Source: a virus. From it: 39,406 nt of DNA. Under the pieces are notes generated by a model. The model was given only the letters and a program-made list of their open reading frames with translations, did not search any database and was not told the DNA's origin. The DNA is taken from the IMG/VR virus record IMGVR_UViG_3300017681_000004, positions 1 to 39,406 of that record. One strand, given 5' to 3'. Of the stretch, positions 1 through 39,406 are shown piece by piece; within the stretch, counting starts at the first letter, position 1; every line of letters begins with the position of its first letter. Both the position numbers and the translations under genes were made by a program.

Positions 1-123
1 CGCACGAACAGACCATCCGAGACGCTATATCTAGCGCAAGAGCACTTGACGCGGCACAAGTAGAGCCGTAAATCAGAGGCCACTGGTCTCCCCCAGTCTC
101 CTCGGTCCTCCCAGACCACTAGC
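1..123. repeat. Terminal direct repeat, left copy (identical to 39284-39406)
   Basis: All 123 nt match the last 123 nt of the window exactly. Covers the last 71 nt of the CDS ending at 39354 plus 52 nt of spacer. Either a physical terminal redundancy or a circular-assembly overlap. Confidence 0.97.
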
Positions 124-24120: not shown

Positions 24121-24352
24121 ACGTTTAGGGTCGCCGCATTGGCCCGGTAGCGACCCGGATGCGACGACCCTTCAAGGCCGGGCCGGATTGGATACCGGCA
24201 TCTGCAAGATTTATCAGGAATCTGGCGTCACCATTTCTGGATCGGCTTCTCACGGCACCGTGCCTACCTGACCGTGAACCCTTGGGACGAATGGGCACCC
24301 ACCCGCTTGCGTTTTCCCATCAGCGCGTCTCTCCGCGCCGCCGGACGCCGGG

Positions 24353-24381
24353 TTTATTTCACTAGTTATGGGTCCTGTCAA
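24353..24381 (-). promoter_or_regulatory. Promoter-like element P-U3 (TTGACA-17-AATAAA) directly after terminator T2
   Basis: TTGACA at 24376-24381. GGAGAGAC leader and an 18-codon micro-ORF (24264-24320) lie 56 nt downstream, the same spacing as in the early cassettes. The -10 is weak. Confidence 0.4.
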
Positions 24382-24416
24382 CAGAAAGCCCGCCGACGCA
24401 GCGAACGTGGCGGGCT
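24382..24416 (-). terminator. Intrinsic terminator T2
   Basis: AGCCCGCC(ACG)...(CGT)CGGCGGGCT stem followed by TTTCTGTT on the minus strand. Confidence 0.65.
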
Positions 24417-24531
24417 CCCATAGCTACTCTCCGACCCTTTGGGTATCTCCGCATGCGCGGGGACCGGCACGCTGTCCTCTTGTCCGGTAGGCGCAGACCC
24501 TATTTTCAGGAGACCTGTGATCTGCCGCGCC
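24382..24531 (-). ncRNA. Candidate small transcript U2 (promoter P-U2 to terminator T2, ~140 nt)
   Basis: Bracketed by TTGACA-17-GATACC and T2. Contains the stems GCGGCAGA/TCTGCGC and CAGG-TCT-CCTG, and a 7-bp hairpin UCCCCGC-GCAU-GCGGAGA. Also holds a 19-codon micro-ORF with a GGAGAG SD. Its RNA or peptide nature is unresolved. Confidence 0.3.
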
Positions 24532-24560
24532 GGTATCTCACCGCTCGCCACCGCTGTCAA
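24532..24560 (-). promoter_or_regulatory. Promoter-like element P-U2 (TTGACA-17-GATACC) directly after terminator T1
   Basis: TTGACA 24555-24560, 17-nt spacer, GATACC 24532-24537. Confidence 0.5.
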
Positions 24561-24602: not shown

Positions 24603-24742
24603 CTATGGCAGGAGTGACGTCCGGTGGAACGGTCGGCACTTAATTGTCTGGCAACCCGCGCTCGCCTAACATGAGCACGCTCCGGTTTGCGATTGACGGA
24701 CCGAATATTCCGCCAGTGCGGTCTCACGGGTAACCCTGCCTG
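24562..24742 (-). ncRNA. Candidate small transcript U1 (promoter P-U1 to terminator T1, ~170 nt)
   Basis: Bracketed by TTGACG-17-GATAAG and T1. Contains only 10- and 33-codon reading frames. Several local stems, e.g. CCGC-ACUG-GCGG. Confidence 0.3.
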
Positions 24743-24771
24743 CTTATCTCACCCCCACGGGTTATCGTCAA
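24743..24771 (-). promoter_or_regulatory. Promoter-like element P-U1 (TTGACG-17-GATAAG), overlapping repeat R3
   Basis: TTGACG 24766-24771, 17-nt spacer, GATAAG 24743-24748 immediately after a TGA stop. Confidence 0.5.
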
Positions 24772-24772
24772 C
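24749..24772 (-). repeat. Repeat R3: GTT GAC GAT AAC CCG TGG GGG TGA
   Basis: Third copy of the portal 3' end (V)DDNPWG-stop. Confidence 0.85.
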
Positions 24773-24847
24773 CGGGTCGGACGCCATCTCGACTGCCCCA
24801 GGGAGCAAGGGATTCGAACCCCCGCTAGCTTTCGCCCCGCGCGCCAT
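24749..24847 (-). CDS. Candidate micro-ORF (32 aa) ending in DDNPWG
   Basis: MARGAKASGGSNPLLPGAVEMASDPVDDNPWG. The ATG is preceded by ACGGGGAGTCCGCAA, which closely resembles the early-cassette leader ACGGGAGACCAGCAA-ATG. Its C-terminus duplicates the portal C-terminus. Confidence 0.35.
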   Translation of the reverse strand: MARGAKASGGSNPLLPGAVEMASDPVDDNPWG

Positions 24848-24942
24848 TTGCGGACTCCCCGTAACAACCCCTTCGCCCGCTGATCAGGCGGAACCACGGG
24901 CGGCCTGCGGCTTTCAGGCTTCCGGTATGCACCCAACCTACA

Positions 24943-24966
24943 CTATCCCCACGGGTTGTCGTCAAC
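24943..24966 (-). repeat. Repeat R2: GTT GAC GAC AAC CCG TGG GGA TAG
   Basis: Second copy. Lies in the +1 frame relative to the Zn-ribbon gene, whose stop (24962-24964) is inside it. Also provides a TTGACG box (24960-24965). Confidence 0.85.
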
Positions 24967-25192
24967 CTCCTCCGGCCAACTCGCGGACGTCGTCTGGGTG
25001 CCCCGCCTTAGAAGAAACACTCCACGAATTCCCGCAGCTATGGCAAGTGCGGGTTCTTGTCGTCGTGTTTGGGTCAAGCCCTCCGATCTGGTTGCCACGC
25101 TTGTCATACGTCGGCGTCCATCCCATCAGGGTCATCATGCTGCCGCTGTAGCTGAATCGGCAGTCCTCACGCGCGCATTCGTCCATCGTCAT
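24962..25192 (-). CDS. Small zinc-ribbon protein (76 aa)
   Basis: CAREDC...CHSCG four-Cys pattern. ATG 25190-25192 overlaps the portal stop (ATGA). The ORF track lists 24962..25198. Confidence 0.6.
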   Translation of the reverse strand: MTMDECAREDCRFSYSGSMMTLMGWTPTYDKRGNQIGGLDPNTTTRTRTCHSCGNSWSVSSKAGHPDDVRELAGGG

Positions 25193-25209
25193 CCCCATGG
25201 GTTGTCATC
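25189..25209 (-). repeat. Repeat R1: portal 3' end GAT GAC AAC CCA TGG GGA TGA
   Basis: Prototype copy. These are the last six codons plus the stop of the portal gene. Confidence 0.85.
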
Positions 25210-27249
25210 CTCTGGCTCCGGCTGCGCCCACAGCCCGCCATCCATCCCTTCCGGGTCGCTCGGGACCGGCCCCTGCATGGCCTGCTCTGTCGGCCCCTCA
25301 GGCGCGATCTGGGGCACGGCGGACACATGCGCGTCGACCATCGTCTTGACCGTCTGCGCCTGCTCCTTGCCCGCCTGAACGCCGATCTTGCCCGTCTCGG
25401 CCTGCACCTTGCCGACCGTGGCGCCGGCCTGTGCCGCCTGAGCCTGCTTCAGCGTGGTCTCGGCCTGCGTTTTGCCGACGTCGGCCTGTGCCTGCGCTAG
25501 TTCGATCTGCGCCGCCTGCTGGACCGCCGGGTTCGGCTGCTGCGCCTTTTCGATCTCGCCCATGGCCTCCTTTTTCACAGAAGCCGGCAGGGCAGACAGT
25601 TTCAGAATCAGCCCAGGCGGGATCTGCTGCCCGTTCTGAGCCAGAGCGAGCAGCGTATCGAAGGCGTCGGCCATCGCGTTGACGTTGTCCGGCCCCTCAT
25701 CGATCAGGATATCGACATCGAGCGAGCCGAGCGCGTTCACGAGCACCTGTTGCCCGAGTTCGCCCTGTTCGGTGCCATTGACTTGAAGGAACTCGGTCAG
25801 TCCTTCGCTGTCGGTGACGCGAATCCAGCGCTCTGCGGTCCAGAATTGCTGAACAGCCGACCAAATCGCACGATATACCCGGATTTTCCATCCGCGGTAG
25901 CGAAGTAGAAACGGACCAAGCTCGGCGATCCCTGCCTGCTGTAGCAACTGTATTGCCCGGCCAGACTGGTTCTTGCCACCTTCGCCGACGAGCGATGGAT
26001 TGGGCCCGAAATTGTCGATTTCGTTCTTGGCGTCCTCAAGAAACGCCATATTCCCCTGAAAATCCGCAGTGCCCTGCTCGACCTCATATTTCCCATCCGT
26101 GTTTAGCTCAATGAACCCGTCAACGCGCGCCTCCTCACGACGGGCAACCTCGACGTCATCGACCACGCCCCGCTGCGCACGGATCTTCCGGCTGTTCAAG
26201 CTGTGCAGGGCCTTGGAACGGCGGCGATTGATCTCGTCCTGCGGGCTCTTGAGGTCGCGCACGAACCCATAGCGGTCATCGTCCTGGTCGATCATGTTCG
26301 AGTACATGATGAGCCGGCAGGAGGACGCGCCCTTGTTGTCCTTGAACGGCGACGGGCCGCGTTCGAGCACGATGTCGCCCGTGTAGAAGCAATAGAACCA
26401 GTCGCGGCCCTTGCGATACCAGTGCTCTACGACGCGGACGGTTCGCTCGCGGGTGTTGGTCCATTTGGTCTGACGGTTGGTGTCGGTGGGGTTGTCTTCG
26501 GAGCCTCCCGTTGCAGAGACGCTGTCGCGTACAGACTGTGCGTGATCAGGCCACAACTCGGCGACCAAACCTCCATCCATCCATTTGTGGATACCCATGA
26601 ATGTGGCGTCAGAAAAGTCTGCGCGGGCAGATCGCGGGTCATAGAAAAACTCCCTCGGGTCGATGCGCTGAATCGAGATATCCGGGTCGCCCTGGTCGCC
26701 GGCCTCGACCACGATCTCAAGTCCGCCAATCGCCGACGTGGCTCCATCCTCGGCGCAGTCGGGGCTGATGGATTTCCAGTCGTTCTGATCCAGCACGTAG
26801 TTCAGGACCGCTGTGGCAAGCTCGGCGCCGTCCTCGTGCTTCGGCGTGCGGGCGAACGACTTCGGGTCCTGCCGCAGGCGCTCGAGCAGGCCGACGACGG
26901 CGTTGATCTTCCGCGAGACCCGGTTGAACGTGACCACCGGCTGACCGCGGCCTCGCAGCTTGCGGATCTCTTTCTCGGTCCACTGCGAGCCGTGGCGGTA
27001 TCGGCGCGACTCCTGCGCCTCGTCCATCTCGGCGGACTTCGACCCGAGATAATCGCTGTACTGGCGCCGCAGCCGTTCCAAGCCATCCGCGTCGAGGCCG
27101 TCGAGATCCTTGACGGCGCCCATCTGACGGCCGATCGACCCGCTGGTCTCGACCGTGTAGCGCTCGCCACGGGGCATCCGCGTTTTCATCTCGCGAACGT
27201 CGCCGGGTGCCACCAGCTTTTCGCCGGGGCCGATTAGTCCTGCCGTCAT
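25189..27249 (-). CDS. Portal protein
   Basis: 686 aa, downstream of TerL. Has a RYRHGSQWTEKEIRKLRGRGQPVVTFNRV-type portal N-terminal motif (RYY.G.QW...GRP...N). C-terminal Gln/Ala-rich helix and an acidic tail. Confidence 0.85.
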   Translation of the reverse strand: MTAGLIGPGEKLVAPGDVREMKTRMPRGERYTVETSGSIGRQMGAVKDLDGLDADGLERLRRQYSDYLGSKSAEMDEAQESRRYRHGSQWTEKEIRKLRGRGQPVVTFNRVSRKINAVVGLLERLRQDPKSFARTPKHEDGAELATAVLNYVLDQNDWKSISPDCAEDGATSAIGGLEIVVEAGDQGDPDISIQRIDPREFFYDPRSARADFSDATFMGIHKWMDGGLVAELWPDHAQSVRDSVSATGGSEDNPTDTNRQTKWTNTRERTVRVVEHWYRKGRDWFYCFYTGDIVLERGPSPFKDNKGASSCRLIMYSNMIDQDDDRYGFVRDLKSPQDEINRRRSKALHSLNSRKIRAQRGVVDDVEVARREEARVDGFIELNTDGKYEVEQGTADFQGNMAFLEDAKNEIDNFGPNPSLVGEGGKNQSGRAIQLLQQAGIAELGPFLLRYRGWKIRVYRAIWSAVQQFWTAERWIRVTDSEGLTEFLQVNGTEQGELGQQVLVNALGSLDVDILIDEGPDNVNAMADAFDTLLALAQNGQQIPPGLILKLSALPASVKKEAMGEIEKAQQPNPAVQQAAQIELAQAQADVGKTQAETTLKQAQAAQAGATVGKVQAETGKIGVQAGKEQAQTVKTMVDAHVSAVPQIAPEGPTEQAMQGPVPSDPEGMDGGLWAQPEPEDDNPWG

Positions 27250-29661: not shown

Positions 29662-29690
29662 GTTATACGTCGGCGCTATTGGCGTGTCAA
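29662..29690 (-). promoter_or_regulatory. Early-type promoter, near-consensus sigma70 (TTGACA-17-TATAAC)
   Basis: GAAATAACCGTTGACAC. TTGACA 29685-29690, TATAAC 29662-29667. Confidence 0.75.
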
Positions 29691-39118: not shown

Positions 39119-39354
39119 CCGCGCGCGTCTCGCTAGTCGACCAGATCGCCACCGTCGAGCGCGTCGCCCACGAGATCGCGATGCTTATGAAAGAGCGAGA
39201 TTTCTACGTGAGCTACCCGCAGATGGTCGGCTTTGAGTTGGAAAACCTACAGGCCGCAGTGCGGACGCTGGAATTCATGCGGGCGCACGAACAGACCATC
39301 CGAGACGCTATATCTAGCGCAAGAGCACTTGACGCGGCACAAGTAGAGCCGTAA
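39115..39354 (+). CDS. Hypothetical protein (79 aa); 3' end lies in the terminal repeat
   Basis: MTARVSLVDQIATVERVAHEI... ATGA overlap with the upstream stop. The last 71 nt are duplicated at 1-71. Confidence 0.55.
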   Translation: MTARVSLVDQIATVERVAHEIAMLMKERDFYVSYPQMVGFELENLQAAVRTLEFMRAHEQTIRDAISSARALDAAQVEP

Positions 39355-39406
39355 ATCAGAGGCCACTGGTCTCCCCCAGTCTCCTCGGTCCTCCCAGACC
39401 ACTAGC
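39284..39406. repeat. Terminal direct repeat, right copy (identical to 1-123)
   Basis: Exact 123/123 identity with the left end. Confidence 0.97.

Follow-up and report, generated by a model that had tools for sequence, protein, structure and literature searches.

Probable relics of recombined portal-gene ends among small cassettes at a plastic locus of an uncultivated podovirus-like phage: a reading from sequence comparison

The portal gene and the locus behind it

The stretch of DNA analyzed here, the window (IMG/VR record IMGVR_UViG_3300017681_000004, 39,406 nt), derives from a podovirus-like phage of ∼39.3 kb in which a plastic locus separates a P22-type portal gene from the tail and capsid genes. 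The portal gene (25189 to 27249, minus strand), with the gene for the terminase large subunit immediately upstream, encodes a protein of 686 amino acids that ends in QPEPEDDNPWG before a TGA and matches the Pfam P22_portal profile over most of its length (PF16510; E value of 1.2e-114; 384.5 bits against a cutoff of 26.1; best stretch at profile positions 247 to 593 of 594). Close homologues of this portal form 11 clusters, 10 of which end in DDNPWG or a near variant, and DDNPWG is the true portal C terminus across 13 relatives (portals 77 to 96% identical); in relative L003, the stop codon is lost and the protein has a 21-codon extension. Because variation in the six tail codons among the 13 true portal ends is almost wholly restricted to third positions, the DDNPWG peptide appears to be under selection in real portals. 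The tail is confined to portals that are at least 77% identical. With an acidic run and then P-W at the very end of the protein, it resembles the acidic-aromatic docking tail of SSB, DDDIPF; unlike docking tails of the SSB type, however, the portal tail is clade restricted, and the comparison covers the portal alone, not the further copies of its codons described below.

All features of the locus lie on the minus strand and are given here in reading direction. The true portal end with its stop codon (R1, 25209 to 25189) forms a TGA-CG-ATG junction that couples the next open reading frame (ORF), and junctions of this type, GGGG(A/G)TGACGATG, also precede three unrelated small genes in the relatives (L002, L005/L035, and L038). 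The coupled ORF (25198 to 24962) is a zinc ribbon-like ORFan with a CxxxxC...CxxC pattern, 78 amino acids long from its first ATG, although the relatives indicate that translation likely starts at the ATG at 25186. It has no Pfam or PHROG match, a database search returned only the query itself, and none of the relatives contains it. Its final five codons and stop (GCC GGA GGA GGT TGA) come from R2, a stretch of 34 nt (24976 to 24943) that consists of GCCGGAGGAGGTT, six codons for DDNPWG, and a TAG and that is called a portal 3'-end relic here for reasons given in the next section. R2 is followed by unit A (24942 to 24774), a noncoding insert that is found only in the window and lacks a terminator of its own. 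A second relic, R3 (24773 to 24743), consists of GGTT, the DDNPWG codons with TGA, and GATAAG, and leads into the noncoding unit B (24742 to 24561), which ends in a strong predicted intrinsic terminator (24600 to 24561). Directly behind this terminator lies element C (24560 to 24532), a promoter-like TTGACA-N17-GATACC in which a TGA precedes the second hexamer, and then the noncoding unit C (24531 to 24382), with an intrinsic terminator called by terminator scan and folding (24419 to 24382). The same arrangement recurs in element D (24381 to 24353; TTGACA-N17-AATAAA, TGA before the hexamer), which directly follows the terminator of unit C. The last unit, D (24352 to 24121), is a noncoding leader with a long hairpin (24170 to 24128) just ahead of a conserved gene for a protein of 64 amino acids (24120 to 23926), the first conserved gene past the plastic locus and its right-hand boundary.

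The sequence behind the portal gene differs in nearly every one of the 13 relatives, whereas the portal gene and the 64-amino-acid gene (homologues in L002, L005, L034, L035, L036, L037, L039, and L043) are conserved. For example, L034 carries one unit and the window carries four units plus the ORFan; one small gene is all that joins the portal gene to the 64-amino-acid gene in L005 and L035, with no promoter/terminator unit. Relatives at the DNA level were absent among GenBank phages, in which the best portal matches, from Pseudanabaena phages, are ∼35% identical and too distant to help, and a portal scan of the genome collection yielded no prophage relatives.

Unit B is a homologue of the single unit behind the portal gene in L034 and L036 (BLAST against L034, 93% identity over 44 nt and 91% over 34 nt). 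It has a fold z-score of −3.6 with a terminal hairpin and a U run, and the alignment of its family is poor except at the terminator. A protein-coding role for unit B was rejected because the stretch in common with L034 contains a frame-breaking indel. Homologues of units A, C, and D were sought in the relatives, and none were found; a search of the window and 8 relatives against Rfam identified no known RNA family for the units. No consensus structure is claimed for them, the sequences being too few; the first hairpin of the type 1 unit shows a few compensatory pairs. Unit A contains a tRNA-like element (24873 to 24799; T loop, GGTTCGAATCC) to which ARAGORN assigns a tRNA-Pro(tgg)-like fold only at the relaxed setting -ps80, with a degenerate D arm and an A at position 33; the same relaxed search also gives spurious tmRNAs. 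Judged by a canonical D arm, a 7-nt anticodon loop with U33, and recognition by standard tools, unit A does not contain a tRNA gene. Its identification as a tRNA or tmRNA was rejected, since ARAGORN at default settings found none and Rfam had no match at the gathering threshold or at E values up to 10. An origin of the T arm as an att site or by capture of the end of a host tRNA was rejected as well: viral contigs contain no match to the 21-nt T-arm/acceptor string, and its sole match in the genome collection is in one unrelated firmicute. The units would presumably be made as small RNAs.

Copies of the portal end in the window and in related phages

A degenerate search for GAYGAYAAYCCNTGGGG on both strands of the whole window, with at most one mismatch allowed, returned exactly R1, R2, and R3; the motif with a stop codon thus has three minus-strand copies, compared with 0.01 expected from shuffled sequences. 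The copies read GAT GAC AAC CCA TGG GGA TGA (R1), GAC GAC AAC CCG TGG GGA TAG (R2 core, 24963 to 24943), and GAC GAT AAC CCG TGG GGG TGA (R3 core, 24769 to 24749). All four variable sites are third codon positions, and each copy is followed by a stop. The first-pass annotation of this DNA had reported these copies and their purely synonymous differences, and its coordinates, codons, and stops were all reproduced, as was the peptide likeness that it saw upstream of them (QPEPE, WPEEV, and SDPV). At the DNA level, similarity reaches upstream to GCCGGAG (24976) in R2 and to GGTT (24773) in R3. R2 indeed lies in the +1 frame of the zinc ribbon gene, the TGA of the 78-amino-acid ORF being located within the GTTGAC of R2, and R3 forms the end of a 32-codon ORF (24847 to 24749) with GGGGAG 7 nt ahead of its ATG. 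Followed back to an ATG, the frames of R2 and R3 are open for 60 and 44 codons, respectively.

Both relics have counterparts among the true portal ends of other members of the clade. The portal-derived stretch of R3, GGTTGACGATAACCCGTGGGGGTGAGATAAGC, is identical at every position to the true portal end of L034 (AQPEEVDDNPWG and stop) together with the bases that follow it; upstream of this stretch, R3 and L034 diverge. The identity of R3 to the portal end of L004 is 90%. R2 is 96.6% identical to the portal end of L034 across 29 nt, including an identical left flank (GCCGGAGGAGGTT), and its 21 nt with the TAG are the same as the true portal end of L036. Each synonymous variant in R2 and R3 can be found among the true portal ends of the relatives. 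Given that R2 and R3 match the true portal ends of other clade members, the synonymous-only pattern was most likely inherited from donor portals.

Extra copies are also present in two relatives, L036 and L043, where they lie beside different inserted cassettes. In L036 (96% portal identity), the portal end is followed by a different insert gene, encoding 80 amino acids, then by a relic, and then by a homologue of unit B; the relic has the same left boundary as R2, is open for only 10 codons, and lacks a start codon. L043 has three copies, and both of its relics are fused to a truncated 5' end (∼60 to 75 nt) of the 64-amino-acid gene, which is the product that would be expected of unequal crossover; relic 2 lacks a start codon and has a D-to-G change. 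Because two of these three extra copies are startless, one has the D-to-G change, and two lie behind truncated starts of the next gene, the copies in the relatives are read as recombination joints. The five relics of the window and the relatives are all near intact, each with its stop kept, and older, decayed relics (2 to 4 mismatches, outside ORFs) were found neither in the window nor in the relatives. This intactness fits a recent origin or selection on a promoter or ribosome-binding site, and selection on a translated tail would fit it as well.

That last possibility corresponds to a proposal of the first-pass annotation, namely, that DDNPWG is a docking peptide shared by the portal and by small proteins that compete for, or are targeted to, the same partner. 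On this view, the R3 ORF and a recoded or +1-shifted zinc ribbon protein would be translated with the tail. In the window, R2 and R3 do lie in ATG-opened frames with the stop in the same position, the GGGGAG ahead of the R3 ORF is Shine-Dalgarno-like, and selection on the peptide is clear for real portals; furthermore, an unrelated portal family also has DDNPW motifs in its acidic C-terminal region, and the relic in L036 is in frame with the upstream 80-amino-acid gene, directly after the TAG of that gene. However, by the annotation's own account, drifted copies in relatives would speak against a translated tail, and the startless copies of L036 and L043 and the nonsynonymous change in L043 are of that kind. 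The frame of the relic relative to the upstream ORF also varies (+1 in the window; the same frame, past a stop, in L036; and a shifted frame, past a truncated gene start, in L043), L005, L035, and L043 have homologues of the 80-amino-acid gene that lack such a tail, the R3 ORF, for which no homologue exists, overlaps the tRNA-like fold, and the donor portal ends fully account for the synonymous-only pattern. As a shared C-terminal motif, DDNPWG holds for the portal and fails for the extra copies, whose carriers have no tailed orthologues, and we consider the docking proposal very unlikely. There is likewise little reason to believe that the relics have been reused here, with the R3 ORF product and/or a frameshifted zinc ribbon protein acting as DDNPWG-tailed decoys or adaptors for the portal-tail partner; if this were true, the portal end would combine the roles of docking peptide, promoter, and recombination linker.

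The position of the two relics around unit A allows another explanation, in which R2 and R3 are a target duplication or att repeats and unit A is a site-specific, tRNA-like insert of ∼170 nt. A direct repeat of ∼23 nt (GGTTGACGAYAACCCGTGGGG) is present on both sides of unit A, the tRNA-like fold lies within it, and tRNA-like sequences are common integration targets. The repeats differ at 2 to 3 positions, however, and each is closer to the portal end of a different relative than to the other repeat. Unit A encodes no recombinase, and apart from the firmicute match in the genome collection, no second copy of the unit or of its T arm was found, viral contigs included; moreover, the relics of L036 and L043 flank quite different cargo. 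Site-specific integration of unit A is, in our judgment, highly doubtful. We consider it probable instead that R2 and R3 are relics, ∼25 to 35 nt long, of portal 3' ends that arrived with cassettes recombined behind the portal gene. This agrees with a further suggestion of the first-pass annotation, serial cassette insertion at a conserved boundary, which is borne out by the match of R2, R3, and their flanks to the portal ends of relatives and by the repetition of the pattern in L036 and L043.

Promoter-like geometry at portal ends

R2 and R3 had also been credited with promoter boxes and with a stop codon abutting the −10 hexamer. Comparison with the relatives supports the putative boxes, strongly in R3 and weakly in R2. 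R3 reads TTGACG-N17-GATAAG; as claimed, its TGA abuts GATAAG, and the TG of this stop codon would serve as an extended −10. The claim does not extend to R2, which holds TTGACG-N17-TGTAGG (24965 to 24937) and in which the TAG is followed by TGTAGG, a poor −10; R2 is a weak promoter candidate and, given this −10, may be a dead relic. The recurrence of the TTGAC-N14-GTGA geometry at 24560 to 24538 is real, and one more instance, missed previously, was found at 24381 to 24359, so that the pattern has 3 matches compared with 0.16 expected. The pattern TTGACR-N14-TGn-nA occurs 5 times in the window, compared with 0.36 expected, and three of the five instances are at this locus. A generic sigma-70 scan of the region found no sites at threshold, a result of the weak match of the −10 hexamers to the Escherichia coli consensus.

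The form of a portal end corresponds to what follows it. Where a protein gene comes next, the portal end reads stop-(C/A)G-ATG in five of five cases, with E or A before DD; where a noncoding unit comes next, it has promoter-like geometry in eight of eight. In seven of these eight, a −35-like hexamer lies exactly 17 nt from the next hexamer, in one of two registers that are 3 nt apart: the first pairs TTGACG with GATAAG, AATAAC, or TACCCG, and the second pairs ATGACA with TATGAC, TATGCA, TATCCG, or TACACC. The eighth end, in L043, has its own TTGACA-N17-GATAAA, beginning 10 nt past the stop. Only in the first register does V or I precede DD and thereby create the TTGAC. These regularities suggest promoter activity at the locus.

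The first-pass annotation had raised the alternative that the repeated stretch is a regulator-binding site that is coding in the portal only. The stretch falls in the spacer of the putative promoter, which is where the Q-binding element of lambda PR' lies; each unit would give a short transcript ending at a terminator ahead of the late structural genes; and the relics are unusually well preserved. The spacers themselves do not bear this out, however: elements C and D have the −35 and GTGA-(G/A)ATA in common but unrelated spacers, and the spacers in L002, L003, L004, L038, and L043 are unrelated as well. In addition, true portal ends vary at third codon positions, as would be expected of a constraint on a peptide and not of one on a DNA site, and L005 and L035 do without any promoter/terminator unit. 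A binding site conserved as DNA is thus improbable.

Proposed history of the locus and known systems

The best reading of these observations is that the relics are portal ends carried as expression adaptors, a reading that combines insertion at the boundary with putative promoters. The last codons of the essential portal gene would have two jobs, encoding the conserved DDNPWG tail and providing an apparent promoter or ribosome-binding site for whatever lies downstream. In the promoter form, of the sigma-70 type, the V/I-D-D codons would contain the −35 as TTGACG, or D-D-N would contain it as ATGACA; the spacer would be made up of the NPWG codons, and the stop codon, with its TG as part of an extended −10, would be followed by the −10 hexamer. 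In the other form, a ribosome-binding site and a stop-NG-ATG junction would yield a translationally coupled gene. A cassette would move by unequal or illegitimate crossover or by exchange inside the short conserved portal-end sequence; being functional only with a portal-end adaptor, each added cassette would therefore leave another copy of the portal end. Such a dual use would account for the fragment of the portal gene that invariably travels with the cassettes. The copies would have diverged while they were real portal ends in different phages, and translation of R2 and R3 would not be required. More generally, synonymous-only repeats with kept stops need not be translated, because they can be imported fragments of orthologous gene ends on which selection acted in the donor.

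A reconstruction of the locus would begin with an L034-like ancestor in which the order was portal gene, embedded promoter, unit B, terminator, and 64-amino-acid gene. The lineage of the window would have gained unit A together with a donor portal end (R2), the zinc ribbon ORFan coupled to an R1-type portal end, and units C and D joined at terminator/promoter junctions. This history builds on what was observed, namely, homology between relics and portal ends, extra copies and joints in the relatives, and a variable locus; the order in which events took place is only reconstructed, because units A, C, and D and the zinc ribbon ORF have no homologues and the donors are unsampled. The locus can be regarded as a hotspot in an uncultivated phage clade that accumulates small noncoding units, one of them tRNA-like, bounded by putative promoters and terminators, and these units are cheap candidates for phage small RNAs.

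The PeSLs (promoter-early stem-loops) of T4-type phages are composite terminator/promoter motifs that mediate the shuffling of modules within hyperplastic regions (Arbiol et al. 2010, PMC2839356; Comeau et al. 2014, PMC4122927). As with PeSLs, short repeated signals (a sigma-70-like promoter, a stem-loop terminator, an upstream stop, and a ribosome-binding site/start) bound variable cassettes here, and indels or replacements between close relatives begin and end at the motifs: the inserts in the window, L036, and L043 run from the portal end or a relic to a terminator or to the start of the 64-amino-acid gene. By sequence alone, the composite terminator-then-promoter arrangement is present where terminators B and C directly precede elements C and D (CTTTTCG joined to TTGACA and CTTTCTG joined to TTGACA), and likewise in L003 and L004. 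In abundance and consensus, the locus departs from PeSLs: the genome is podovirus-like with a P22-type portal, not of the T4 type, and has a single locus with four elements compared with ∼50 motifs per genome, weak −10s, and G+C-rich coding sequence upstream. Other differences are that an essential structural gene supplies the leading linker from its coding 3' end, which makes the relics resemble conserved codons, that the cargo is mostly noncoding, and that the putative promoters match the E. coli consensus weakly.

Several other systems share part of this organization. In temperate phages, the lambdoid ones among them, morons and conserved sequences at gene boundaries were reportedly described by Hendrix, Juhala, Clark, and colleagues. 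The cassettes resemble morons in that units of cargo with their own putative promoter and terminator lie between genes that are adjacent in relatives, and the locus resembles the lambdoid boundaries in its short conserved crossover points between genes and its partial gene duplications at illegitimate joints. Unlike that of morons, the cargo consists mainly of small noncoding units and one ORFan, not lysogenic conversion genes. In class 1 integrons, the promoter Pc is embedded in an upstream coding gene, intI1, and here, too, a coding sequence doubles as a putative promoter for a downstream array of exchangeable cassettes; in contrast to integrons, there is no integrase and no attC, and exchange appears to occur by general or illegitimate recombination. 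The likeness to lambda PR'-qut-6S RNA-tR' is one of geometry alone (a promoter, a transcript estimated at ∼100 to 200 nt, and a terminator before the late genes), whereas the spacers differ among the elements here and the unit is missing from L005 and L035. Set beside these systems, the locus is a case of ordinary, though unusually clear, phage mosaic evolution and goes in no respect beyond known phage mosaicism.

The portal-end locus of the window

The first 123 nt of the window (1-123) are identical to the last 123 nt (39284-39406), and because of this exact terminal overlap, the window represents a complete genome of ~39.3 kb, either assembled as a circle or terminally redundant. All genes relevant to the portal-end locus lie on the minus strand. 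A 686-aa ORF (27249-25189, -) encodes a P22-type portal (Pfam PF16510, E 1e-114), with the terminase large subunit gene upstream and the tail-spike, tail-fibre, major-capsid, head-closure and ejection-protein genes downstream. Next to the portal is the Zn-ribbon ORF (25198-24962, -), a 78-aa ORFan, and a conserved 64-aa gene follows at 24120-23926 (-); no convincing ORF was found in the ~840 nt between these two genes.

The first-pass annotation had described three copies of the portal's terminal codons, DDNPWG-stop, that differ at synonymous positions, and this observation was borne out. A search of both strands with the degenerate pattern GAYGAYAAYCCNTGGGG returned only three matches, against 0.01 expected: the portal end itself (R1, GAT GAC AAC CCA TGG GGA TGA, 25209-25189, -) and two further copies, R2 (24963-24943, -) and R3 (24769-24749, -). 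All four variable sites among the copies are third positions, and a stop follows every copy. The stop of the Zn-ribbon ORF, the location of R2 in the +1 frame, and the 32-codon ORF ending in R3 were likewise as described.

The ~840-nt stretch comprises four units, A to D, each headed by TTGAC(G/A)-N17-hexamer, which is consistent with the promoter geometry previously noted at the copies. These elements are R2 (hexamer TGTAGG, 24965-24937, -), R3 (GATAAG, 24771-24743, -), C (GATACC, 24560-24532, -) and D (AATAAA, 24381-24353, -). In three of the four (R3, C and D), GTGA precedes the hexamer, forming a TGn extended -10; the hexamers are weak by E. coli standards, and that of R2 is poor. For the combination TTGACR-N14-TGn-nA, the window has five occurrences where 0.36 would be expected, three of them at the portal-end locus. 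Similar TTGACR-N17 candidates elsewhere in the window include one with TATAAC on the minus strand (-35 at 29690) and one with TAAATC on the plus strand (-35 at 46); the latter promoter-like site, TTGACG-N17-TAAATC, falls within the 123-nt terminal repeat. Overlapping divergent promoter-like TTGAC-N17-TAnAnn sites (2821-2860, both strands) separate the helicase-side genes from plus-strand genes, probably as an early divergent control region.

Units B and C end in a strong G+C-rich 3' hairpin followed by a U-run that abuts the next TTGACA; unit A has no terminator. An Rfam search matched none of the four units. Units C and D (24121-24560, -) are two additional promoter-like, terminator-bounded non-coding units without a homologue in any relative. 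Unit A contains a tRNA-like fold (24873-24799, -) with an acceptor-like stem, a T-arm with a perfect GGTTCGAATCC loop and a GAAA mini-arm, that lacks a canonical D-arm and U33 and is overlapped by the 32-aa R3 ORF. The element fails standard tRNA and tmRNA detection and has no Rfam tRNA match, and ARAGORN makes a tRNA-Pro(tgg)-like call only at -ps80; a search with its 21-nt T-arm/acceptor string hit no viral sequence and only a single, unrelated Firmicute. Possible identities of the element are a decayed phage tRNA gene and a tRNA mimic. On the strand opposite unit B (24671-24683, +), ATGAGCACGCTCC differs little from the first bases of the 64-aa gene in three relatives (ATGAGCACnCTCC in L034, L002 and L043); recombination could have left it there as an inverted scar, or it could be antisense to the initiation region of this gene in other members of the clade.

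Portal tails and downstream content among relatives

No GenBank phage is close to the window. The comparison was made with 13 distinct relatives from IMG/VR, JGI metagenomes and Logan assemblies, with portals 77-96% identical to that of the window. The portal C-terminus is DDNPWG throughout, with three exceptions: DDSPWG in L006, DDNPWA in L037, and a lost stop in L003. Among the 13 true portal ends, the six tail codons vary almost only at third positions, which argues that the peptide is under selection in the portal. In L003 (2075-2141), TGC replaces the TGA stop and the protein extends 21 codons past DDNPWG; either a free C-terminal DDNPWG is not essential, or the contig is erroneous or the phage defective. 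Tails are unrelated in portals ≤56% identical to the window's, and many of those at 50-56% end in ...PF. In an unrelated portal family (PHROG portal hits, ~620 aa; L007 4442-6313, -; L012 1720-3582, -; L025 8211-10088, +), the acidic C-terminal region contains (D/E)DDNPW(G/N) or GNPW motifs, two or three in number; DDNPW may recur as a short motif in portal tails.

The content 3' of the portal varies in nearly every genome. The portal is followed by one coupled small protein gene and nothing else in L005 and L035; by a different coupled gene and then a promoter/terminator unit in L002 and L038; by one non-coding unit in L034, L037, L039/L042 and L006; by two such units in L003 and L004; by a non-coding unit, a small protein gene and a second unit in L001; and by mixtures in L036 and L043. 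In relatives, the ATG of the 64-aa gene directly adjoins the U-run of the intrinsic terminator (CTTTTCGTATGAGC), and neither a Shine-Dalgarno sequence nor a promoter is visible there (L034 1300-1320; L036 2790-2806; L002 6425-6440; L043 3195-3210; window 24121-24170). Because of this arrangement, the downstream tail and capsid genes must, as far as can be read from the sequence, be transcribed through one to three terminators, and a read-through or antitermination mechanism in the clade is suggested.

Origin of the extra copies

The copies are best matched by true portal ends of relatives. L034 ranks among the two closest relatives, with 94% identity across the portal segment that its short contig covers. 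Its portal ends in ...GCGCAGCCGGAGGAGGTT GAC GAT AAC CCG TGG GGG TGA GATAAGC (AQPEEVDDNPWG-stop), followed by one ~130-nt unit and the ATG of the 64-aa gene. Over GGTTGACGATAACCCGTGGGGGTGAGATAAGC, R3 is identical to this portal end and the adjoining downstream bases, differing further upstream, and unit B is homologous to the L034 unit (93% over 44 nt, 91% over 34 nt). The left flank of R2, GCCGGAGGAGGTT, also equals the L034 portal end, and its 21 nt, TAG stop included, equal the true portal end of L036. Given these matches, every synonymous variant that distinguishes R1, R2 and R3 has its counterpart in the true portal end of some clade member. Copies that had first diverged as genuine portal ends of separate phages, and only later came together, would be expected to show this synonymous-only pattern, and no translation of R2 or R3 would be required. 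A duplication of a target or att site around unit A would also place a copy on each side, but R2 and R3 are each closer to a different relative's portal end than to each other; searches for a further copy of unit A found none among viral contigs and, in the genome collection, brought up just one unrelated Firmicute sequence.

Joints between such segments can be seen in two relatives, in support of serial cassette insertion at a boundary sequence, one of the options raised in the first-pass annotation. In L036, whose portal is 96% identical and whose layout is as in the window, the portal end (EDDNPWG-TAG-AG-ATG) leads into an 80-aa gene, an insertion with no relation to the Zn-ribbon ORF, then an extra portal-end copy (a relic), then a unit B homologue. 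The left boundary of this relic is identical to that of R2 (TAG|CCGGAGGAGGTTGACGATAACCCGTGGGGATGA GATAGA), and since its resemblance to the portal carries on into the 80-aa gene, over that gene's final codons (GTGGGCG[T/C]AG), joining at a short microhomology is suggested. L043 has three portal-end copies, and its relics 2 and 3 each lie behind ~60-75 nt of truncated 64-aa gene 5' end, in a different frame; such joints would be the expected product of unequal crossover between one genome's 64-aa gene and another's portal end.

The same relics bear on the proposal that R2 and R3 are made as proteins sharing a DDNPWG docking tail. Both window frames are open to an ATG, with a Shine-Dalgarno-like run for R3, which makes a translated tail improbable rather than impossible in this genome, but relatives contradict this reading with the frame-breaking and non-synonymous drift that the first-pass annotation had set as its refutation: the L036 relic is open for just 10 codons and lacks a start, and in L043, relic 2 likewise lacks a start codon and encodes PEDGNPWG, a non-synonymous D-to-G change. 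Donor portal ends make it unnecessary as well. The remaining option, a regulator-binding site, would place that site in the promoter spacer, in keeping with the position of the copies, but it is likewise unsupported: the spacers of the other promoter-like elements are unrelated and portal-end variation tracks codon positions.

The portal end as a candidate expression adaptor

The type of unit that comes next correlates perfectly with the bases at the portal stop and immediately behind it. Where a protein gene is next (window R1, L036, L002, L005/L035 and L038), the junction is T(G/A)(A/G)-(C/A)G-ATG, GGGG(A/G) of the W-G codons forms a Shine-Dalgarno sequence, and E or A precedes DD. GGGG(A/G)TGACGATG serves three other unrelated genes in relatives in addition to the Zn-ribbon ORF (the L036 variant is GGGGATAGAGATG), and so behaves as a conserved linker. 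Where a non-coding unit is next, promoter geometry with an exact 17-nt spacer is present in two registers 3 nt apart. In register 1 (L034, L037 and L004), TTGACG (GTT/ATT GAC GAT, residue V or I) is paired with TGA | GATAAG, AATAAC or TACCCG; in register 2, ATGACA (GAT GAC AAC) is paired with stop-TGG | TATGAC, TATGCA or TATCCG (L001, L006 and L039/L042) or with the hexamer TACACC (L003). L043 has a separate TTGACA-N17-GATAAA that begins 10 nt past the stop. V or I before DD, which creates TTGAC, is found only in register 1 and in three V-type relics. Given this correlation, we infer that the portal end serves whatever unit comes next as an expression adaptor, either promoter or ribosome-binding site, and that a recombinant would be viable only if it kept this end.

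A plausible history starts from an L034-like ancestor in which the portal, with its embedded promoter, preceded unit B, a terminator and the 64-aa gene. Unit A and a VDDNPWG-TAG portal end (R2) would have come from an unsampled donor, joined just upstream of the resident GGTTGAC (R3). The Zn-ribbon ORFan would have been gained coupled to an EDDNPWG-TGACGATG portal end (R1), its last codons (A-G-G-G-stop) being read from the R2 relic. Units C and D would have been inserted between the terminator (CTTTTCG) and the next element; in L034, L036, L002 and L043, the ATG of the 64-aa gene directly follows this terminator junction. No donor of units A, C and D or of the Zn-ribbon ORFan was found among the relatives and databases searched.

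R2 and R3 are clear, though ordinary, traces of mosaic evolution in phages, with the apparent dual use of the portal end as the one modestly interesting feature. The units fit both the general moron concept and the boundary sequences of lambdoid phages. Among described phenomena, the nearest is the PeSL system of T4-type phages, in which composite terminator/promoter motifs, including an upstream stop codon and a downstream Shine-Dalgarno sequence and start, flank ORFan cassettes and mediate their modular shuffling (PMC2839356, PMC4122927). Composite signals, predicted ones in the window, and indel boundaries are common to both, whereas the phage group, the number of motifs and the strength of the consensus differ, and the leading linker in the window is the coding end of an essential gene.
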